This document shows, one piece after another, positions 1 through 6,554 of a stretch of 6,554 bases of DNA. Each line of letters begins with the position of its first letter. Within the stretch, counting starts at the first letter, position 1. The notes under the pieces are model-generated. The model was given only the letters and a program-made list of their open reading frames with translations, searched no databases and had not been told where the DNA came from. A program made the position numbers and the translations under genes. Source of the DNA: a virus (Duplodnaviria > Heunggongvirae > Uroviricota > Caudoviricetes); the IMG/VR virus record IMGVR_UViG_3300029033_000094, positions 1-6,554 of that record; one strand, written 5' to 3'.

Positions 1-2124
1 ACGAAGATGGATGCCTTTGGCTGTACCAGCCGGGGGCAGGCACACCGCGCCGGGCTGTGGCTGATTAAAACGGAGCTGCTGGAAACGCAGACGGTGGACT
101 TCAGCGTGGGTGCCGAAGGGCTTCGCCATGTGCCGGGCGATGTCATTGAAATCTGTGATGATGACTATGCCGGTATCAGCACCGGCGGGCGCGTGCTGGC
201 GGTAAACAGCCAGACCCGGACGCTGACGCTCGACCGTGAAATCACGCTGCCATCCTCCGGTACCACGCTGATAAGCCTGGTTGACGGAAGTGGCAATCCG
301 GTCAGCGTGGAGGTTCAGTCCGTCACCGACGGCGTGAAGGTGAAAGTGAGCCGTGTTCCTGACGGCGTTGCCGAATACAGCGTGTGGGGACTGAAGCTGC
401 CGACGCTGCGCCAGCGCCTGTTCCGCTGCGTGAGTATCCGTGAGAACGACGACGGCACGTATGCCATCACCGCCGTGCAGCATGTACCTGAAAAAGAGGC
501 CATCGTGGATAACGGGGCGCACTTTGACGGCGACCAGAGCGGCACGGTGAATGGTGTCACGCCGCCAGCGGTGCAGCACCTGACCGCCGAAGTCATCGCA
601 GACAGCGGGGAATATCAGGTGCTGGCGCGCTGGGACACGCCGAAGGTGGTGAAGGGCGTGAGCTTCCAGCTCCGTCTGACCGTAACAGCGGATGACGGCA
701 GTGAGCGGCTGGTCAGCACGGCCCGGACGACGGAAACCACATACCGCTTCACGCAGCTGGCGCTGGGGAACTACAGGCTGACAGTCCGGGCGGTAAATGC
801 GTGGGGGCAGCAGGGCGATCCGGCGTCGGTATCGTTCCGGATTGCCGCACCGGCAGCGCCGTCACAGATTGAGCTGACGCCGGGCTATTTTCAGATAACC
901 GCCACGCCGCATCTTGCGGTTTCTGACCCGACGGTACAGTTTGAGTTCTGGTTCTCGGAAAAGCGGATTACCGATATCAGGCAGGTTGAAACCACAGCCC
1001 GCTATCTTGGCACGGCGCTGTACTGGATAGCCGCCAGTATCAATATCAAACCGGGCCATGATTATTACTTTTATATCCGCAGTGTGAACACCGTTGGCAA
1101 ATCGGCATTCGTGGAGGCCGTCGGTCGGGCGAGCGATGATGCGGAAGGTTACCTGGATTTTTTCAAAGGCAAGATAACCGAATCCCATCTCGGCAAGGAG
1201 CTGCTGGAAAAAGTCGAGCTGACGGAGGATAACGCCAGCAGACTGGAGGAGTTTTCGAAAGAGTGGAAGGACGCCAACGATAAGTGGAATGCCATGTGGG
1301 CTGTCAAAATTGAGCAGACCAAAGACGGCAAACATTATGTCGCGGGTATTGGCCTCAGCATGGAGGACACGGAGGAAGGCAAACTGAGTCAGTTTCTGGT
1401 TGCCGCTAACCGTATCGCATTTATTGACCCGGCAAACGGGAATGAAACGCCGATGTTTGTGGCGCAGGGCAATCAGATATTCATGAACGACGTGTTCCTG
1501 AAGCGCCTGACGGCCCCCACCATTACCAGTGGTGGCAGTCCTCCGGTATTTTCCCTGACATCAGACGGAAAGCTGACCGCTAAAAATGCGGATATCAGTG
1601 GCAGTGTGAATGCGAACGCCGGGACGCTCAACAATGTCACGGTAAATGAAAACTGTACGATTAAGGGCATGCTGGAGGCGACTCAGGTCAGAGGTGACTT
1701 CGTTAAAGCTGTATCCAAATCATTCCCGAAACAGGCTGGTACGTGGGGTAATACGGAAACACCAAACGGGACGGTTACAGTCACCATCAGCGATGATCAT
1801 AACTTTGACCGTCAAATCATTATTCCGCCCATTATCTTTAACGGAATAGCGTATAGCGATCCGGGAAGTGGTAATAACCCGGGAGGTACAAGATACACGG
1901 GGTATGGTTTTGAAGTTCGCAAAAACGGTGTATTAATCGCATCCAGAGAAACTAAAGGGGCCATTCCCGGTAGCTACAGTGCGGTTATTGATATGCCTAG
2001 TGGCAGGGGAAGCGTCACTCTGGAGTTTAAGGTTTTCCATAAAGGCAATCAGCGGGCAGGTAATATCACCGACTGTACGGTGATTGTGACCAAAAAAGCC
2101 GCTTCCGGCATCAGTATTCGTTGA
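1..2124 (+). CDS. J: Tail tip host-specificity protein J, C-terminal ~705 codons; 5'-partial, gene continues upstream of the window
   Basis: Frame is open from nt 1 to TGA at 2122-2124; the ATG at nt 7 is an internal Met, not the start. The translation reads as the central and C-terminal part of lambda-type J, including beta-rich FN3-like repeat segments (e.g. ...[27 protein letters not shown]...). Gene order J-lom-stf-tfa matches lambda. Identity is by recognition, not search. Confidence 0.88.
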
Positions 2125-2144
2125 AATTGTTATAACCCATATAA

Positions 2145-2170
2145 GGGCACCAGAAATGGTGCCTTTTTTA
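2145..2170 (+). terminator. Candidate rho-independent terminator between J and lom
   Basis: Stem GGCACCA (2146-2152) pairs with TGGTGCC (2157-2163) around a GAAA tetraloop (2153-2156), followed directly by TTTTTT (2164-2169). It sits 21 nt after the J stop. Orientation fits + strand transcription only. Confidence 0.6.
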
Positions 2171-2182
2171 TTGCAGAAAAGC

Positions 2183-2188
2183 GAGAGG
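2183..2188 (+). promoter_or_regulatory. Shine-Dalgarno-like element for lom
   Basis: GAGAGG lies 5 nt upstream of the lom ATG at 2194. Confidence 0.5.
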
Positions 2189-2193
2189 TAATT

Positions 2194-2793
2194 ATGCGTA
2201 AACTTTATGCCGCCATTTTTTCCGCAGCCATTTGTCTGGCCGTATCCGGTGCGCCTGCATGGGCATCTGAACATCAGTCCACGCTGAGCGCGGGGTATCT
2301 TCATGCCTCGACGAACGTTCCCGGCAGCGATGATCTTAACGGGATTAACGTGAAATACCGTTATGAGTTTACGGATACGCTGGGGCTGGTGACGTCATTC
2401 AGCTATGCAGGAGACAAGAATCGCCAGCTGACCCATTACAGCGATACCCGCTGGCATGAAGATTCCGTTCGTAACCGCTGGTTCAGCGTGATGGTGGGGC
2501 CGTCTGTGCGCGTGAATGAATGGTTCAGCGCGTATGCGATGGCGGGTGTGGCTTACAGCCGTGTGTCGACTTTCTCCGGGGATTATCTCCGCGTAACTGA
2601 CAACAAGGGGAAAACGCACGATGTGCTGACCGGAAGTGATGACGGTCGCCACAGCAACATGTCTCTGGCGTGGGGGGCTGGCGTGCAGTTTAACCCGACC
2701 GAATCCGTGGCCATTGATGTCGCTTATGAAGGCTCCGGCAGTGGCGACTGGCGCACTGACGGTTTCATCGTGGGTGTCGGTTATAAGTTCTGA
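2194..2793 (+). CDS. lom: Lom-like outer membrane protein (Ail/Lom/OmpX/PagC family 8-strand beta-barrel), 199 aa
   Basis: ATG at 2194 with upstream SD. N-terminal signal peptide MRKLYAAIFSAAICLAVSGAPAWA with an AxA cleavage motif. The C-terminal half (...SAYAMAGVAYSR...VDVAYEGSGSGDWRTDGFIVGVGYKF) is near-identical in pattern to lambda Lom and ends in the C-terminal Phe typical of OM beta-barrels. Position between J and stf matches lambda. Confidence 0.85.
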   Translation: MRKLYAAIFSAAICLAVSGAPAWASEHQSTLSAGYLHASTNVPGSDDLNGINVKYRYEFTDTLGLVTSFSYAGDKNRQLTHYSDTRWHEDSVRNRWFSVMVGPSVRVNEWFSAYAMAGVAYSRVSTFSGDYLRVTDNKGKTHDVLTGSDDGRHSNMSLAWGAGVQFNPTESVAIDVAYEGSGSGDWRTDGFIVGVGYKF

Positions 2794-2819
2794 TTAGCCA
2801 GGTAACACAGTGTTATGAC

Positions 2820-2846
2820 AGCCCGCCGGTTCTGGCGGGCTTTTTT
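2820..2846 (+). terminator. Candidate rho-independent terminator downstream of lom
   Basis: GC-rich stem AGCCCGCC (2820-2827) pairs with GGCGGGCT (2834-2841) around loop GGTTCT, running into TTTTTT (2841-2846). It lies 27 nt after the lom stop and 12 nt before the stf ATG. Confidence 0.65.
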
Positions 2847-2848
2847 GT

Positions 2849-2855
2849 GGGGTGA
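2849..2855 (+). promoter_or_regulatory. Shine-Dalgarno-like element for stf
   Basis: GGGGTGA ends 2 nt before the ATG at 2858 (the GG core is about 5 nt upstream). Confidence 0.45.
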
Positions 2856-2857
2856 AT

Positions 2858-5800
2858 ATGGCAGTAAAGATTTCAGGTGTACTGAAAGACGGTGCAGGTA
2901 AACCGGTACAGAACTGTACAATCCAGCTGAAAGCAAAACGTAACAGCACCACGGTGGTGGCGAACACGGTGGCCTCAGAAAATCCGGATGAAGCCGGGCG
3001 TTACAGCATGGACGTTGAGTACGGTCAGTACAGCGTTATTCTGTTGGTGGAAGGATTCCCGCCGTCACATGCCGGGACCATCACCGTGTATGAAGATTCC
3101 CGACCCGGTACGCTGAATGATTTTCTCGGTGCCATGACGGAGGATGATGCCCGTCCGGAGGCTCTGCGCCGTTTTGAACTGATGGTGGAAGAGGTGGCGC
3201 GTAACGCGTCCGCAGTGGCACAGAACACGGCAGCCGCGAAGAAGTCAGCCAGTGATGCCAGCACATCTGCCAGTGAGGCGGCAACTCATACAACCGATGC
3301 TGCAGGCTCAGCTCGTGCCGCCAGCACGTCAGCCGGACAGGCTGCATCATCTGCTCAGTCAGCATCTTCCAGCGCAGGAACGGCATCAACAAAGGCCAGT
3401 GAAGCATCGAAAAGTGCTGCTGCTGCAGAGTCCTCAAAAAGCGCGGCAGCTACCAGTGCCGCTGCGGCGAAAACGTCAGAAACGAATGCGGCAGCGTCAC
3501 AACAATCAGCAGCCACTTCTGCATCCGCCGCGACCACGAAGGCGTCAGAAGCTGCCACCTCAGCCCGGGATGCGGCGGCCTCAAAAGAGGCGGCAAAATC
3601 ATCAGAAACGAGCGCAGCCTCGAGCGCCAGTAGTGCAGCCTCCTCGGCAACAGCGGCAGGAAATTCCGCGAAGGCGGCAAAAACGTCCGAGACGAACGCT
3701 AAGTCTTCTGAGACGGCAGCAGCACAGAGTGCCTCCGCAGCAGCAGACTCAAAAACAGCGGCTGCCTCATCTGCCAGCGCCGCGTCAACAAATGCCGGGC
3801 AGGCCTCAGCCAGTGCCACCGCTGCCGGAAAGTCGGCAGAAAGCGCCGCATCATCCGCTTCAACAGCCACAACGAAGGCTGGCGAAGCCACTGAACAGGC
3901 CACGGCAGCAGCGAGGTCAGCTTCCGCAGCGAAGACATCCGAAACGAACGCGAAAGCGTCGGAAACCAGCGCAGAATCCTCAAAAACGGCTGCCGCATCG
4001 TCAGCCAGTTCGGCGGCGTCATCGGCATCATCTGCGTCTGCTTCAAAAGATGAGGCGACCAGACAGGCGTCAGCAGCGAAGGGCAGCGCCACGACGGCAT
4101 CCACGAAGGCGACAGAGGCAGCTGGCAGTGCGACGGCGGCAGCACAGAGCAAAAGTACAGCAGAATCCGCGGCAACGCGCGCTGAGACAGCAGCAAAACG
4201 GGCAGAGGATATTGCATCCGCCGTGGCGCTTGAGGATGCGAGCACGACGAAAAAGGGGATAGTACAGCTCAGCAGTGCGATCGACAGCACTTCCGAGTCA
4301 CTGGCAGCAACGCCAAAAGCAGTTAAGGCCGCGTATGACCTGGCTAACGGGAAATACACCGCACAGGATGCAACGACAGCACAGAAAGGGATAGTTCAGC
4401 TCAGCAGCGCGACCAACAGCACGTCTGAAACGCTGGCGGCAACGCCAAAGGCAGTAAAAGCAGCCAATGACAATGCTGAGAAACGTCTGCAGAAAGATCA
4501 GAACGGTGCGGATATCCCTGGCAAAGACACCTTTACGAAAAATATTGGTGCCTGCCGCGCCTTCGGTGGGTCAGTAAGCACAACAACAGGAGACTGGACG
4601 ACTGCACAGTTTATCGAGTGGCTGGATTCTCAGGGAGCATTTAACCATCCATACTGGATGTGCAAGGGTTCCTGGTCTTATGGCAATAATAAAATCATTA
4701 CTGATACTGGCTGCGGTAATATTCATCTCGCCGGAGCTGTCATTGAAGTAATGGGGATAAAGTCAGCGATGACGATCCGCATTACCACACCGACCACCTC
4801 CACTGGTGGTGGAACAACTAACGCCCAGTTTACCTATATTAATCACGGAACAGATTATTCACCTGGCTGGCGAAGGGACTATAACTCCAGAAATAAGCCA
4901 ACGGCATCAGAGATCGGGGCGTTACCGTCAGGTGGAACAGCAGTATCATCAGTTAATCTGGCTTCAAAAGGTCGGGTAATCGCGCTGACAGACAATACGC
5001 AGGGGGCAACAGGTCTTGAGTTATACGAGGTGTATAACAACGGATATCCAACAGCGTATGGAAATATCATTCACCTGAAAGGGATGACAGCCGTTGGCGA
5101 AGGTGAGTTACTCATCGGCTGGAGTGGTACAAGCGGTGCTCATGCTCCGGCATTTATTCGTTCACGACGGGATACGACCGATGCAAACTGGTCGCCGTGG
5201 GCGCAGCTTTACACCTCAGCTCATCCTCCTGCAGAGTTTTATCCAGTCGGTGCACCAATCCCGTGGCCATCAGATACCGTTCCGTCTGGCTATGCCCTGA
5301 TGCAGGGGCAGACTTTTGACAAATCTGCTTACCCGAAACTTGCAGCCGCTTATCCGTCAGNNNNNNNNNNNNNNGGCTGGACGATTAAGGGCAAACCTGC
5401 CAGTGGTCGAGCCGTATTATCTCAGGAACAGGACGGCATTAAATCGCACACCCACAGCGCCAGCGCATCCAGTACGGATTTGGGGACGAAAACCACATCG
5501 TCGTTTGATTACGGCACTAAATCCACGAATAACACCGGGGCACATACACACAGTGTGAGCGGCTCTACAAACTCGGCTGGAGCACACACACACTCACTAG
5601 CCAACGTGAACACGGCTAGTGCTAACTCCGGTGCTGGTAGTGCATCAACAAGATTGTCTGTTGTGCATAATCAAAACTATGCAACATCATCTGCTGGCGC
5701 ACATACCCACTCACTGTCCGGCACTGCTGCAAGCGCAGGTGCACACGCACATACTGTCGGTATTGGTGCTCATACGCACTCGGTTGCGATTGGCTCACAT

Positions 5801-5887
5801 GGACACACCATCACCGTTAACGCTGCTGGTAACGCGGAAAACACCGTCAAAAACATCGCATTTAACTACATTGTGAGGCTTGCATAA
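2858..5887 (+). CDS. stf: Side tail fibre protein Stf, 1009 aa; contains a 14-nt N-run at 5361-5374, so continuity is unverified there
   Basis: ATG at 2858 gives N-terminus [26 protein letters not shown]..., which matches the lambda Stf N-terminus as I recall it; an in-frame GTG at 2852 is a less likely alternative start. One frame stays open to TAA at 5885-5887. Contents: Ala/Ser/Thr-rich shaft, two tail-fibre repeats (GIVQLSS...[11 protein letters not shown]), and a His-x-His-rich C-terminal tip ending ...[11 protein letters not shown]. The stop overlaps the tfa start. Confidence 0.85.
3205..4250 (+). repeat. Ala/Ser/Thr-rich low-complexity repeat region encoding the Stf shaft
   Basis: About 350 codons dominated by GCN, TCN, AGC and ACN codons. 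The motif AAKTSETNA recurs three times (about nt 3464, 3674, 3926; spacings 210 and 252 nt), and [10 protein letters not shown]-type stretches recur. Copies differ at synonymous positions, so the repeats are old rather than recent slippage. Confidence 0.8.
4252..4470 (+). repeat. Tandem pair of phage tail-fibre repeats within stf
   Basis: [30 protein letters not shown] (from about 4252) and [30 protein letters not shown] (from about 4384) are in frame, 129 nt (43 codons) apart. The copies are diverged at both nucleotide and amino-acid level. Confidence 0.8.
5361..5374. other. Run of 14 ambiguous bases (N) inside stf: sequencing gap or masked bases
   Basis: Literal n characters in the sequence. 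The stf frame is sensible on both sides (...AAYPS / GWTIKGKP...) and in phase only if the true segment length is 2 mod 3, as 14 is. Confidence 0.95.
5443..5816 (+). other. His-x-His motif-rich C-terminal tip domain of Stf (seven HxH motifs)
   Basis: Seven motifs in order: SHTHS, AHTHS, AHTHS, AHTHS, AHAHT, AHTHS, SHGHT, separated by Gly/Ser/Thr/Ala-rich linkers. This is the pattern of the T4 gp37-type fibre tip. Confidence 0.7.
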
Positions 5888-6471
5888 TGGCATTCAGAAT
5901 GAGTGAACAACCACGGACCATAAAAATTTATAATCTGCTGGCCGGAACTAATGAATTTATTGGTGAAGGTGATGCATATATTCCGCCTCATACAGGTCTG
6001 CCAGCAAACAGTACCGATATTGCACCGCCAGATATTCCGGCAGGCTTCGTGGCTGTTTTCAACAGTGATGAGGCATCGTGGCATCTCGTTGAAGACCATC
6101 GGGGTAAAACGGTTTATGACGTAGCGTCAGGGGACGCGTTATTTATTTCTGAACTCGGTCCGTTACCGGAAAATGTTACCTGGTTATCGCCGGAAGGGGA
6201 GTTTCAGAAGTGGAACGGCACAGCCTGGGTGAAAGATGCAGAAGCAGAAAAACTGTTCCGGATCCGAGAGGCGGAAGAAACAAAAAACAGCCTGATGCAG
6301 GTAGCCAGTGAGCATATTGCGCCACTTCAGGATGCTGTGGATCTGGAAATCGCAACGGAGGAAGAAACCTCATTGCTGGAAGCCTGGAAAAAGTATCGGG
6401 TGTTGCTGAACCGTGTTGATACATCAACTGCACCTGATATTGAGTGGCCTACGAACCCTGTCAGGGAGTAA
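5887..6471 (+). CDS. tfa: Tail fibre assembly protein Tfa, 194 aa
   Basis: ATG at 5887-5889 overlaps the stf TAA (5885-5887) as TAATG. The product [51 protein letters not shown]... is the same length as lambda Tfa (orf-194) and, from memory, near-identical to it. Stop TAA at 6469-6471. Confidence 0.9.
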
Positions 6472-6482
6472 TCATTGGGATT

Positions 6483-6554
6483 ATGCCGCAGCACGTCTTA
6501 AGCAAGAACGTGCTGCGGTTGGATGCTATTTTTTCCCTGAAGCGGAAAACATTA
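6483..6554 (+). CDS. Possible start of a downstream ORF running off the window (MPQHVLSKNVLRLDAIFSLKRKTL...); speculative
   Basis: ATG at 6483 opens a frame with no stop before the window end (24 codons). The only SD-like sequence (GGGA, 6477-6480) is just 2 nt from the ATG, and the frame overlaps the inverted repeat. No recognisable product. Confidence 0.15.
   Translation, partial: MPQHVLSKNVLRLDAIFSLKRKTL
6486..6518. repeat. Perfect 10-bp inverted repeat (hairpin or protein-binding palindrome) just downstream of tfa
   Basis: CCGCAGCACG (6486-6495) and CGTGCTGCGG (6509-6518) are exact reverse complements around a 13-nt loop TCTTAAGCAAGAA, which itself contains the palindrome CTTAAG. A T6 run follows at 6529-6534, 10 nt past the stem. 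Confidence 0.6.

Follow-up and report, generated by a model that had tools for sequence, protein, structure and literature searches.

A predicted T4 gp37-type metal-stapled needle with a hypervariable tip in the side tail fibre of a lambdoid prophage

The subject of this study is the side tail fibre protein Stf encoded in a 6554-nucleotide (nt) stretch of viral DNA, positions 1 to 6554 of the IMG/VR record IMGVR_UViG_3300029033_000094, which as a whole is referred to below as the window. The C-terminus of Stf is very probably a metal-stapled trimeric needle of the type known from T4 gp37, with a receptor tip and with Tfa as its chaperone, the trimer, the metal and the receptor being presumed from known fibres. 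The observations that lead to this interpretation are a set of His-x-His (HxH) motifs, homology to gp37 with alignment of the metal ligands, paired modules in the stem, variability of the tip and a link to the chaperone gene.

The window covers the end of a lambdoid prophage where the tail-fibre genes lie, and the closest complete Escherichia coli genomes carry prophages about 96% identical to it. The gene order J, lom, stf, tfa, together with the tail-attachment domain phage_tail_N (Pfam PF08400) at amino acids (aa) 3-136 of Stf (E 2e-71), is that of a lambdoid side tail fibre locus; phage lambda (Ur-lambda) has the same order of genes and the same N-terminal domain. Moreover, Stf aa 3-96 match the lambda Stf collar structures 9E7M and 9MGH (E 6e-51). 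The other Pfam domains found in Stf are two Phage_fiber_2 repeats, Collar and Phage_fiber. The protein of 1011 aa is the translation of 2852-5884 on the plus strand, although its true start is likely the ATG at 2858 (MAVKISG...), two codons inside the GTG, as in homologues. The features of the locus are collected in Table 1.

Table 1. Genes of the window and parts of the C-terminal domain of Stf, with the corresponding parts of T4 gp37 (positions are those of the window)
Feature	Positions	Strand	Remarks
J, tip attachment protein, C-terminal 705 aa (partial open reading frame)	7-2124		starts at window edge
lom	2194-2793		gene between J and stf
stf, side tail fibre gene, 1011 aa from GTG at 2852	2852-5887	+	open reading frame list, Pfam
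Collar, N-terminal part, aa 796-864 (gp37 D10 811-881), holds the run of N	5237-5443	+	78.8% identity
Ascending stem strand, aa 865-914 (gp37 882-931), motifs 1-3, two xDxGTK units	5444-5593	+	78% identity, ungapped
HxH motif 1, SHTHS, H866/H868	5447-5455	+	aligns with gp37 H883/885
HxH motif 2, AHTHS, H898/H900	5543-5551	+	aligns with gp37 H915/917
HxH motif 3, AHTHS, H912/H914	5585-5593	+	aligns with gp37 H929/931
Tip cassette, aa 915-946 (gp37 932-959)	5594-5689	+	10.7% identity
Descending stem strand, aa 945-994 (gp37 960-1009), motifs 4-7	5684-5833	+	68% identity, ungapped
HxH motif 4, AHTHS, H951/H953	5702-5710	+	aligns with gp37 H966/968
HxH motif 5, AHAHT, H965/H967	5744-5752	+	aligns with gp37 H980/982
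HxH motif 6, AHTHS, H974/H976	5771-5779	+	aligns with gp37 H989/991
HxH motif 7, SHGHT, H983/H985	5798-5806	+	aligns with gp37 H998/1000
Collar, C-terminal part, aa 995-1011 (gp37 1010-1026)	5834-5884	+	94% identity (16/17)
tfa, tail fibre assembly chaperone, 194 aa	5887-6471	+	Pfam Caudo_TAP, E 3e-45

A search of all PDB chains by sequence, with Stf aa 751-1011 as the query, gave a match to 2XGF, the receptor-binding tip of T4 gp37 (E 4.4e-82; query residues 46-261 against chain residues 28-242). The alignment spans Stf aa 796-1011 and reaches the last residue of both proteins; in a global alignment with gp37 811-1026 the identity is 68% over 216 aa, and its division by the published gp37 subdomains (PMC6957217) gives the values listed in Table 1. 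All 14 motif histidines align without gaps to the iron-ligand histidines of gp37. Like gp37, Stf combines a collar with a needle of the same length class carrying seven HxH motifs at aligned positions; the collar is split, the needle being inserted before its last 17 residues, and a chaperone gene follows directly downstream (tfa here, gp38 in T4). Mutagenesis singled out G921, G964, and F970 of gp37 as structurally important (PMC6957217); the two glycines are retained in Stf as G904 and G949, and the phenylalanine is replaced conservatively by L955. The Pfam Collar match (PF07484) covers Stf aa 800-832 and is short because a run of masked bases, described below, cuts it. The remainder of the fibre is unrelated to gp37; we deal here with a siphovirus side fibre and in T4 with a myovirus long fibre. 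At the DNA level, only the last 134 nt are detectably similar to T4 gene 37 (78%), which indicates that the relationship of Stf and gp37 is old, and a recent transfer from a T-even phage was rejected on the same grounds.

Various aspects of the metal chemistry are known from related and unrelated fibres. The gp37 needle has seven coordinated iron atoms along its length, H929 and H931 are named among the ligands, and alanine at either position abolishes plaque formation (PMC6957217). The count of seven irons is repeated in another paper, which reports HxH motifs in lambda too (PMC11705849). In both sources the count is a secondary statement; for the ligand geometry we follow PMC6116203, where the HxH site is described as an octahedral His6 centre formed by one motif from each of three chains. 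The same His6 octahedral iron site, with one HxH per chain on the three-fold axis, occurs in R-type pyocin fibres, P2 gpV, and phi92 spikes (PMC6116203). Those proteins have one site in different folds, as opposed to the line of seven predicted here; the chemistry is analogous and the family is different. No homology to R-pyocin fibres or P2 gpV was detected in our search, where the PDB matches at E up to 10 were only 2XGF and the short tail fibre collar 9CUY.

A first-pass annotation, made from the sequence of the window, had claimed that the Stf tip carries exactly seven HxH motifs and that these are the signature of a metal-stapled needle. Translation and a regular-expression count confirm the number: the motifs of Stf start at aa 866, 898, 912, 951, 965, 974 and 983 (nt 5447-5806), and all of them fall within a 126-aa segment (5443-5816) whose sole further histidine is H939. 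When this segment was shuffled with its 15 histidines kept, the mean number of HxH was 1.65, and at least seven were obtained in 20 of 100,000 shuffles; seven were never seen in 20,000 shuffles of the whole Stf protein. Thus the seven motifs are real and non-random. The array had also been described as regular and Gly/Ser-linked. The start-to-start spacings of 32, 14, 39, 14, 9 and 9 residues are not regular; glycine and serine are indeed present, but threonine and alanine are abundant as well, the linkers being rich in all four residues (S25, T20, A20 and G14 of the 126 positions). The number of seven ions that it gave, tentatively, for the T4 gp37 tip agrees with the literature (PMC6957217, PMC11705849). 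Membership in the gp37 type of HxH needle is upheld by the homology described above, whereas the count does not serve as a signature: Stf and gp37 have equal numbers of motifs because they are homologous within one length class. In Pfam, the best stretch for the 14-residue His-box family PF03335 is Stf aa 893-906, around motif 2, and in PHROGs the HxH segment falls in tail fibre families.

The following structure can be proposed for the domain. Three Stf chains would form a collar domain (aa 796-864 and 995-1011), and a long hairpin inserted in it would run outwards along the trimer axis (aa 865-914), turn in the tip (approximately aa 915-946) and come back (aa 945-994). At each of seven axial levels, the HxH motif of every chain would provide two imidazoles, and the resulting six histidines would bind one buried metal octahedrally, the metal being Fe(II) in gp37. 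These sites may fix the register of the chains and make the needle stiffer. Contact with an outer-membrane receptor would be made by the hypervariable tip; by analogy with T4 and lambda, this receptor may be a porin (for example OmpC), the lipopolysaccharide (LPS) core or both. Finally, Tfa is the likely folding chaperone of the fibre. It is 95% identical both to lambda Tfa and to TfaR of E. coli K-12, and its similarity to T4 gp38 is detectable (29% identity, E 2e-18). The stop codon of stf and the start codon of tfa overlap as TAATG (5885-5889), suggesting that fibre and chaperone are translationally coupled.

The tip differs from the rest of the domain in its variability. We collected 120 homologues, from which 95 unique complete C-termini were retained. 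Across these relatives, column entropy is near zero in the collar and the stem, both of which are strongly conserved, and is highest at aa 915-947. The tip, mostly 32-53 residues long, is the only hypervariable segment of the domain and sits between His boxes 3 and 4. A prophage of E. coli A8, otherwise 96-99% identical to the window, can be aligned with it at 96% as far as nt 5593, where motif 3 ends, and at 98.6% from nt 5690 onwards; the A8 tip between the two aligned parts is unrelated and longer, so the tip has been swapped as a cassette. Hypervariability and the cassette swap together mark aa 915-946 as the likely receptor-binding tip, and this segment is probably the receptor-binding surface of the fibre. 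Of the non-histidine linkers, which the first-pass annotation had put forward as receptor-contact loops, the 15-residue example that it gave lies inside the cassette, and this corresponds to the gp37 tip subdomain to which LPS and OmpC contacts were mapped by mutagenesis (PMC6957217). The suggestion was rejected for the other linkers, since variation is confined to the linker between motifs 3 and 4 and the rest belong to the conserved stem, among the most conserved columns. The Stf tip is about 11% identical to its gp37 counterpart and two residues longer; its receptor specificity therefore probably differs. The DNA of the tip cassette (nt 5594-5701) is present in 414 of 5426 complete genomes. 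The closest phage tip is that of the isolated phage Turner, which has the same tip at 96.8% identity; a literature search on phage Turner for its receptor found no paper.

The number of HxH motifs varies in the family. Among 111 sequences with a recognisable collar start, most have seven motifs (86 sequences), and the others have five (3), six (14), eight (7) or nine (1); the C-terminus YIVRLA is found in 106 of the 111. Eight motifs occur in the T-even phages VR7, SP18, and EP32a, in the Nonagvirus HdK1 and in lambda, and of the P2-like phages, P2_4A7b has six and SEN5 five. Seven as a signature of the family was rejected for this reason, and the seven motifs of Stf are one length class of the family.

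This variation is orderly. The lengths of the strands before and after the tip change in pairs (Spearman 0.86, n=95), the classes being 46/32 for seven motifs (n=72), 56/41 for eight (lambda belongs here), 66/50 for nine and 42/27 for six. The spacing of motifs across fibres follows the pattern [32, 42 or 52; optional 14; tip; optional 14; 9 x k], with PY100 and SP18 off by one residue. A 10-aa unit xDxGTK of the outgoing strand is paired with a 9-aa unit GxHxHxVxI of the returning strand in lambdoid, T-even, P2-like, and Nonagvirus fibres, and the 14-aa His-box unit either flanks the tip on both sides or is absent from both. Such matched insertions fit the requirement of an antiparallel hairpin needle, and they argue, indirectly, for a stem in which the two strands are matched in length. 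The counts of five, six, seven, eight, and nine all fit the expression n = 3 + 2u + k, where k (2-4) is the number of paired 10-aa/9-aa modules of the lower stem and u (0 or 1) is that of the paired 14-aa His-box module flanking the tip (relatives L002 (lambda), L006-L012, P0096 and P0104). A needle built from countable modules by this rule, combined with a second receptor site in the Mu S'-type domain described below, is a speculative picture that we consider rather doubtful. If the rule were true, the length of the needle and its load of iron (5-9 ions) would be adjusted in steps; it may already stand in the structural literature.

One of the proteins found in the search, P0057, is annotated as 'ParB N-terminal domain-containing' (312 aa). 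Over 79% of the needle query its sequence is 100% identical, and PF02195 is present in it too; probably the open reading frame was called as a chimera, or an E. coli contig was joined wrongly in assembly.

The closest characterised relative of the needle is StfR of the Rac prophage in E. coli K-12. Stf aa 846-1011 and StfR aa 955-1120 have the same amino-acid sequence, so that they share the seven HxH motifs as well as the tip and the C-terminal part of the collar, and the DNA of the tip cassette is 100% identical to stfR of strain MG1655. The two proteins differ elsewhere. Stf is shorter (1011 aa against 1120 aa), its N-terminal half is 87% identical to that of StfR, and its central shaft (approximately aa 560-767) is unrelated to StfR and has a domain similar to the Mu S' tail fibre instead. 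Stf aa 541-695 (4472-4936) match residues 178-332 of phage Mu S' in PDB entry 8JU3, with E 1.1e-70 for this stretch and E 1.6e-88 for the whole query. The fibre is therefore a mosaic of lambda/Rac-, Mu-, and gp37-type modules. Should the Mu-type domain also attach to a surface ligand, there would be two receptor-binding sites in the fibre. In addition, Stf has two tandem Phage_fiber_2 repeats (window approximately 4238-4495, Stf aa approximately 463-548), one more than StfR; the extra 44 aa point to a duplication in Stf relative to StfR.

The needle of lambda Stf is homologous as well, with 72% identity over the aligned C-terminus. It differs in having eight HxH motifs, with one extra FDYGTK and one extra IGAHQHPVV unit, and in its tip, which is longer and unrelated to the Stf tip. 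Lambda Stf binds OmpC. Montag et al. 1989 reportedly found the distal parts of lambda Stf and T4 gp37 to be functionally interchangeable, a lambda side fibre component taking the place of that part of gp37 which recognises the receptor. The stf gene is a well-documented instance of horizontal transfer in ancient times, and its exchange between unrelated phages has long been known (PMC3945230).

Several points weigh against the needle interpretation. The structural likeness to gp37 is read from sequence homology, and the metal and the trimer are carried over from gp37, the evidence for them in Stf being indirect. An AlphaFold2 monomer model of aa 796-1011, built with a 37-sequence alignment, has low confidence (predicted local distance difference test score, pLDDT, 49.6; predicted template modelling score, pTM, 0.17), and a Foldseek search of the PDB with this low-confidence model gave no match; a monomer model is uninformative for a domain whose folding requires an interlaced trimer. 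The Stf tip differs from the tips of T4 and lambda, so their receptor cannot be transferred to it. The identical K-12 needle belongs to a defective prophage, and this copy might therefore not be expressed in virions. Moreover, 14 N at window 5361-5374 mask five codons inside the collar. In phage Turner and in E. coli A8 this site comprises 20 nt (GCGTGATCCCTGATATGCGT), which code for part of GVIPDMR, so that the window has room for five codons against seven in the relatives, the frame being kept either way. The run is either a 6-nt deletion or a mask applied without preservation of length.

Other explanations of the same data were considered. There is a slim chance that the fold is gp37-like and the metal is another one (zinc, nickel or other), or that the sites are partially occupied. 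The sequence specifies no metal, and the HxH site of T4 gp12 holds zinc and not the commoner iron, possibly taken from zinc added in refolding; on the other hand, iron is what was found at the HxH sites of gp37, R-pyocin fibres, P2 gpV, and phi92 spikes (PMC6116203). The 68% identity to gp37, with the identical ligand geometry that it implies, makes iron the default expectation. Still less probable is a role of the His boxes mainly as DNA, in which they would guide recombination for swaps of the tip cassette and would not be metal ligands. The positions of the A8 breakpoints, at the very end of motif 3 and 12 nt before motif 4, fit such a role, as do the imperfect direct repeats of 26-30 nt with 70-85% identity formed by the His-box DNA, and horizontal exchange of stf between unrelated phages is cited in PMC3945230. 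However, these repeats are short and imperfect, and the histidines are conserved between the Stf and T4 proteins, whose DNA shows no detectable similarity apart from the last 134 nt. The gp37 histidines are also crystallographic iron ligands, and the loss of plaques upon replacement of H929 or H931 speaks for their role in the protein. The two roles are compatible, and the one in DNA cannot stand alone.

A last explanation, to which we assign practically no probability, regards stf as a decaying remnant of a cryptic prophage, with motifs that have no function here. The needle is identical to the one of StfR, which comes from a defective prophage (Rac), and this could be taken in this sense; moreover, the context available is only 6.5 kb. 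The reading frames of the partial J, lom, stf, and tfa are nevertheless uninterrupted in the window, the tip recurs in the isolated phage Turner, and the strong conservation of the stem and the collar extends over the 95 relatives. The preferred interpretation thus remains a gp37-type needle with iron as the expected metal.

The needle as such is already known. It is of the StfR type, a member of a long-known family, and it is ordinary because the same sequence is present in K-12 Rac StfR, from the most studied E. coli genome. The homology of Stf and gp37 has been published, and so have the HxH-iron sites, reportedly together with the 2XGF structure by Bartual et al. in 2010. The practical value of the present analysis is in annotation, as it places the presumed host-range-determining cassette of this prophage fibre at aa 915-946. 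The conserved His-box borders may be used as points for the exchange of tips in engineering of lambda-based delivery particles.

Some minor observations concern the surroundings of the fibre genes. The region downstream of tfa in phage Turner and in E. coli A8 is matched by the last 70 nt of the window (6486-6554); it carries a gene on the opposite strand that is annotated as a class I S-adenosylmethionine (SAM)-dependent methyltransferase in A8 and as a hypothetical protein in Turner. A DNA invertase gene of the pinR type lies just past tfa in Turner and in K-12 Rac; no gene of this type is visible within the 6554-nt window. The Ala/Ser/Thr-rich shaft region of stf (approximately 3250-4360) is overlapped by long open reading frames, one of 336 aa in another plus-strand frame and two of 334 and 172 aa on the minus strand, which are most likely by-products of biased repetitive coding. 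Lambda likewise has an annotated reverse open reading frame, orf206b.

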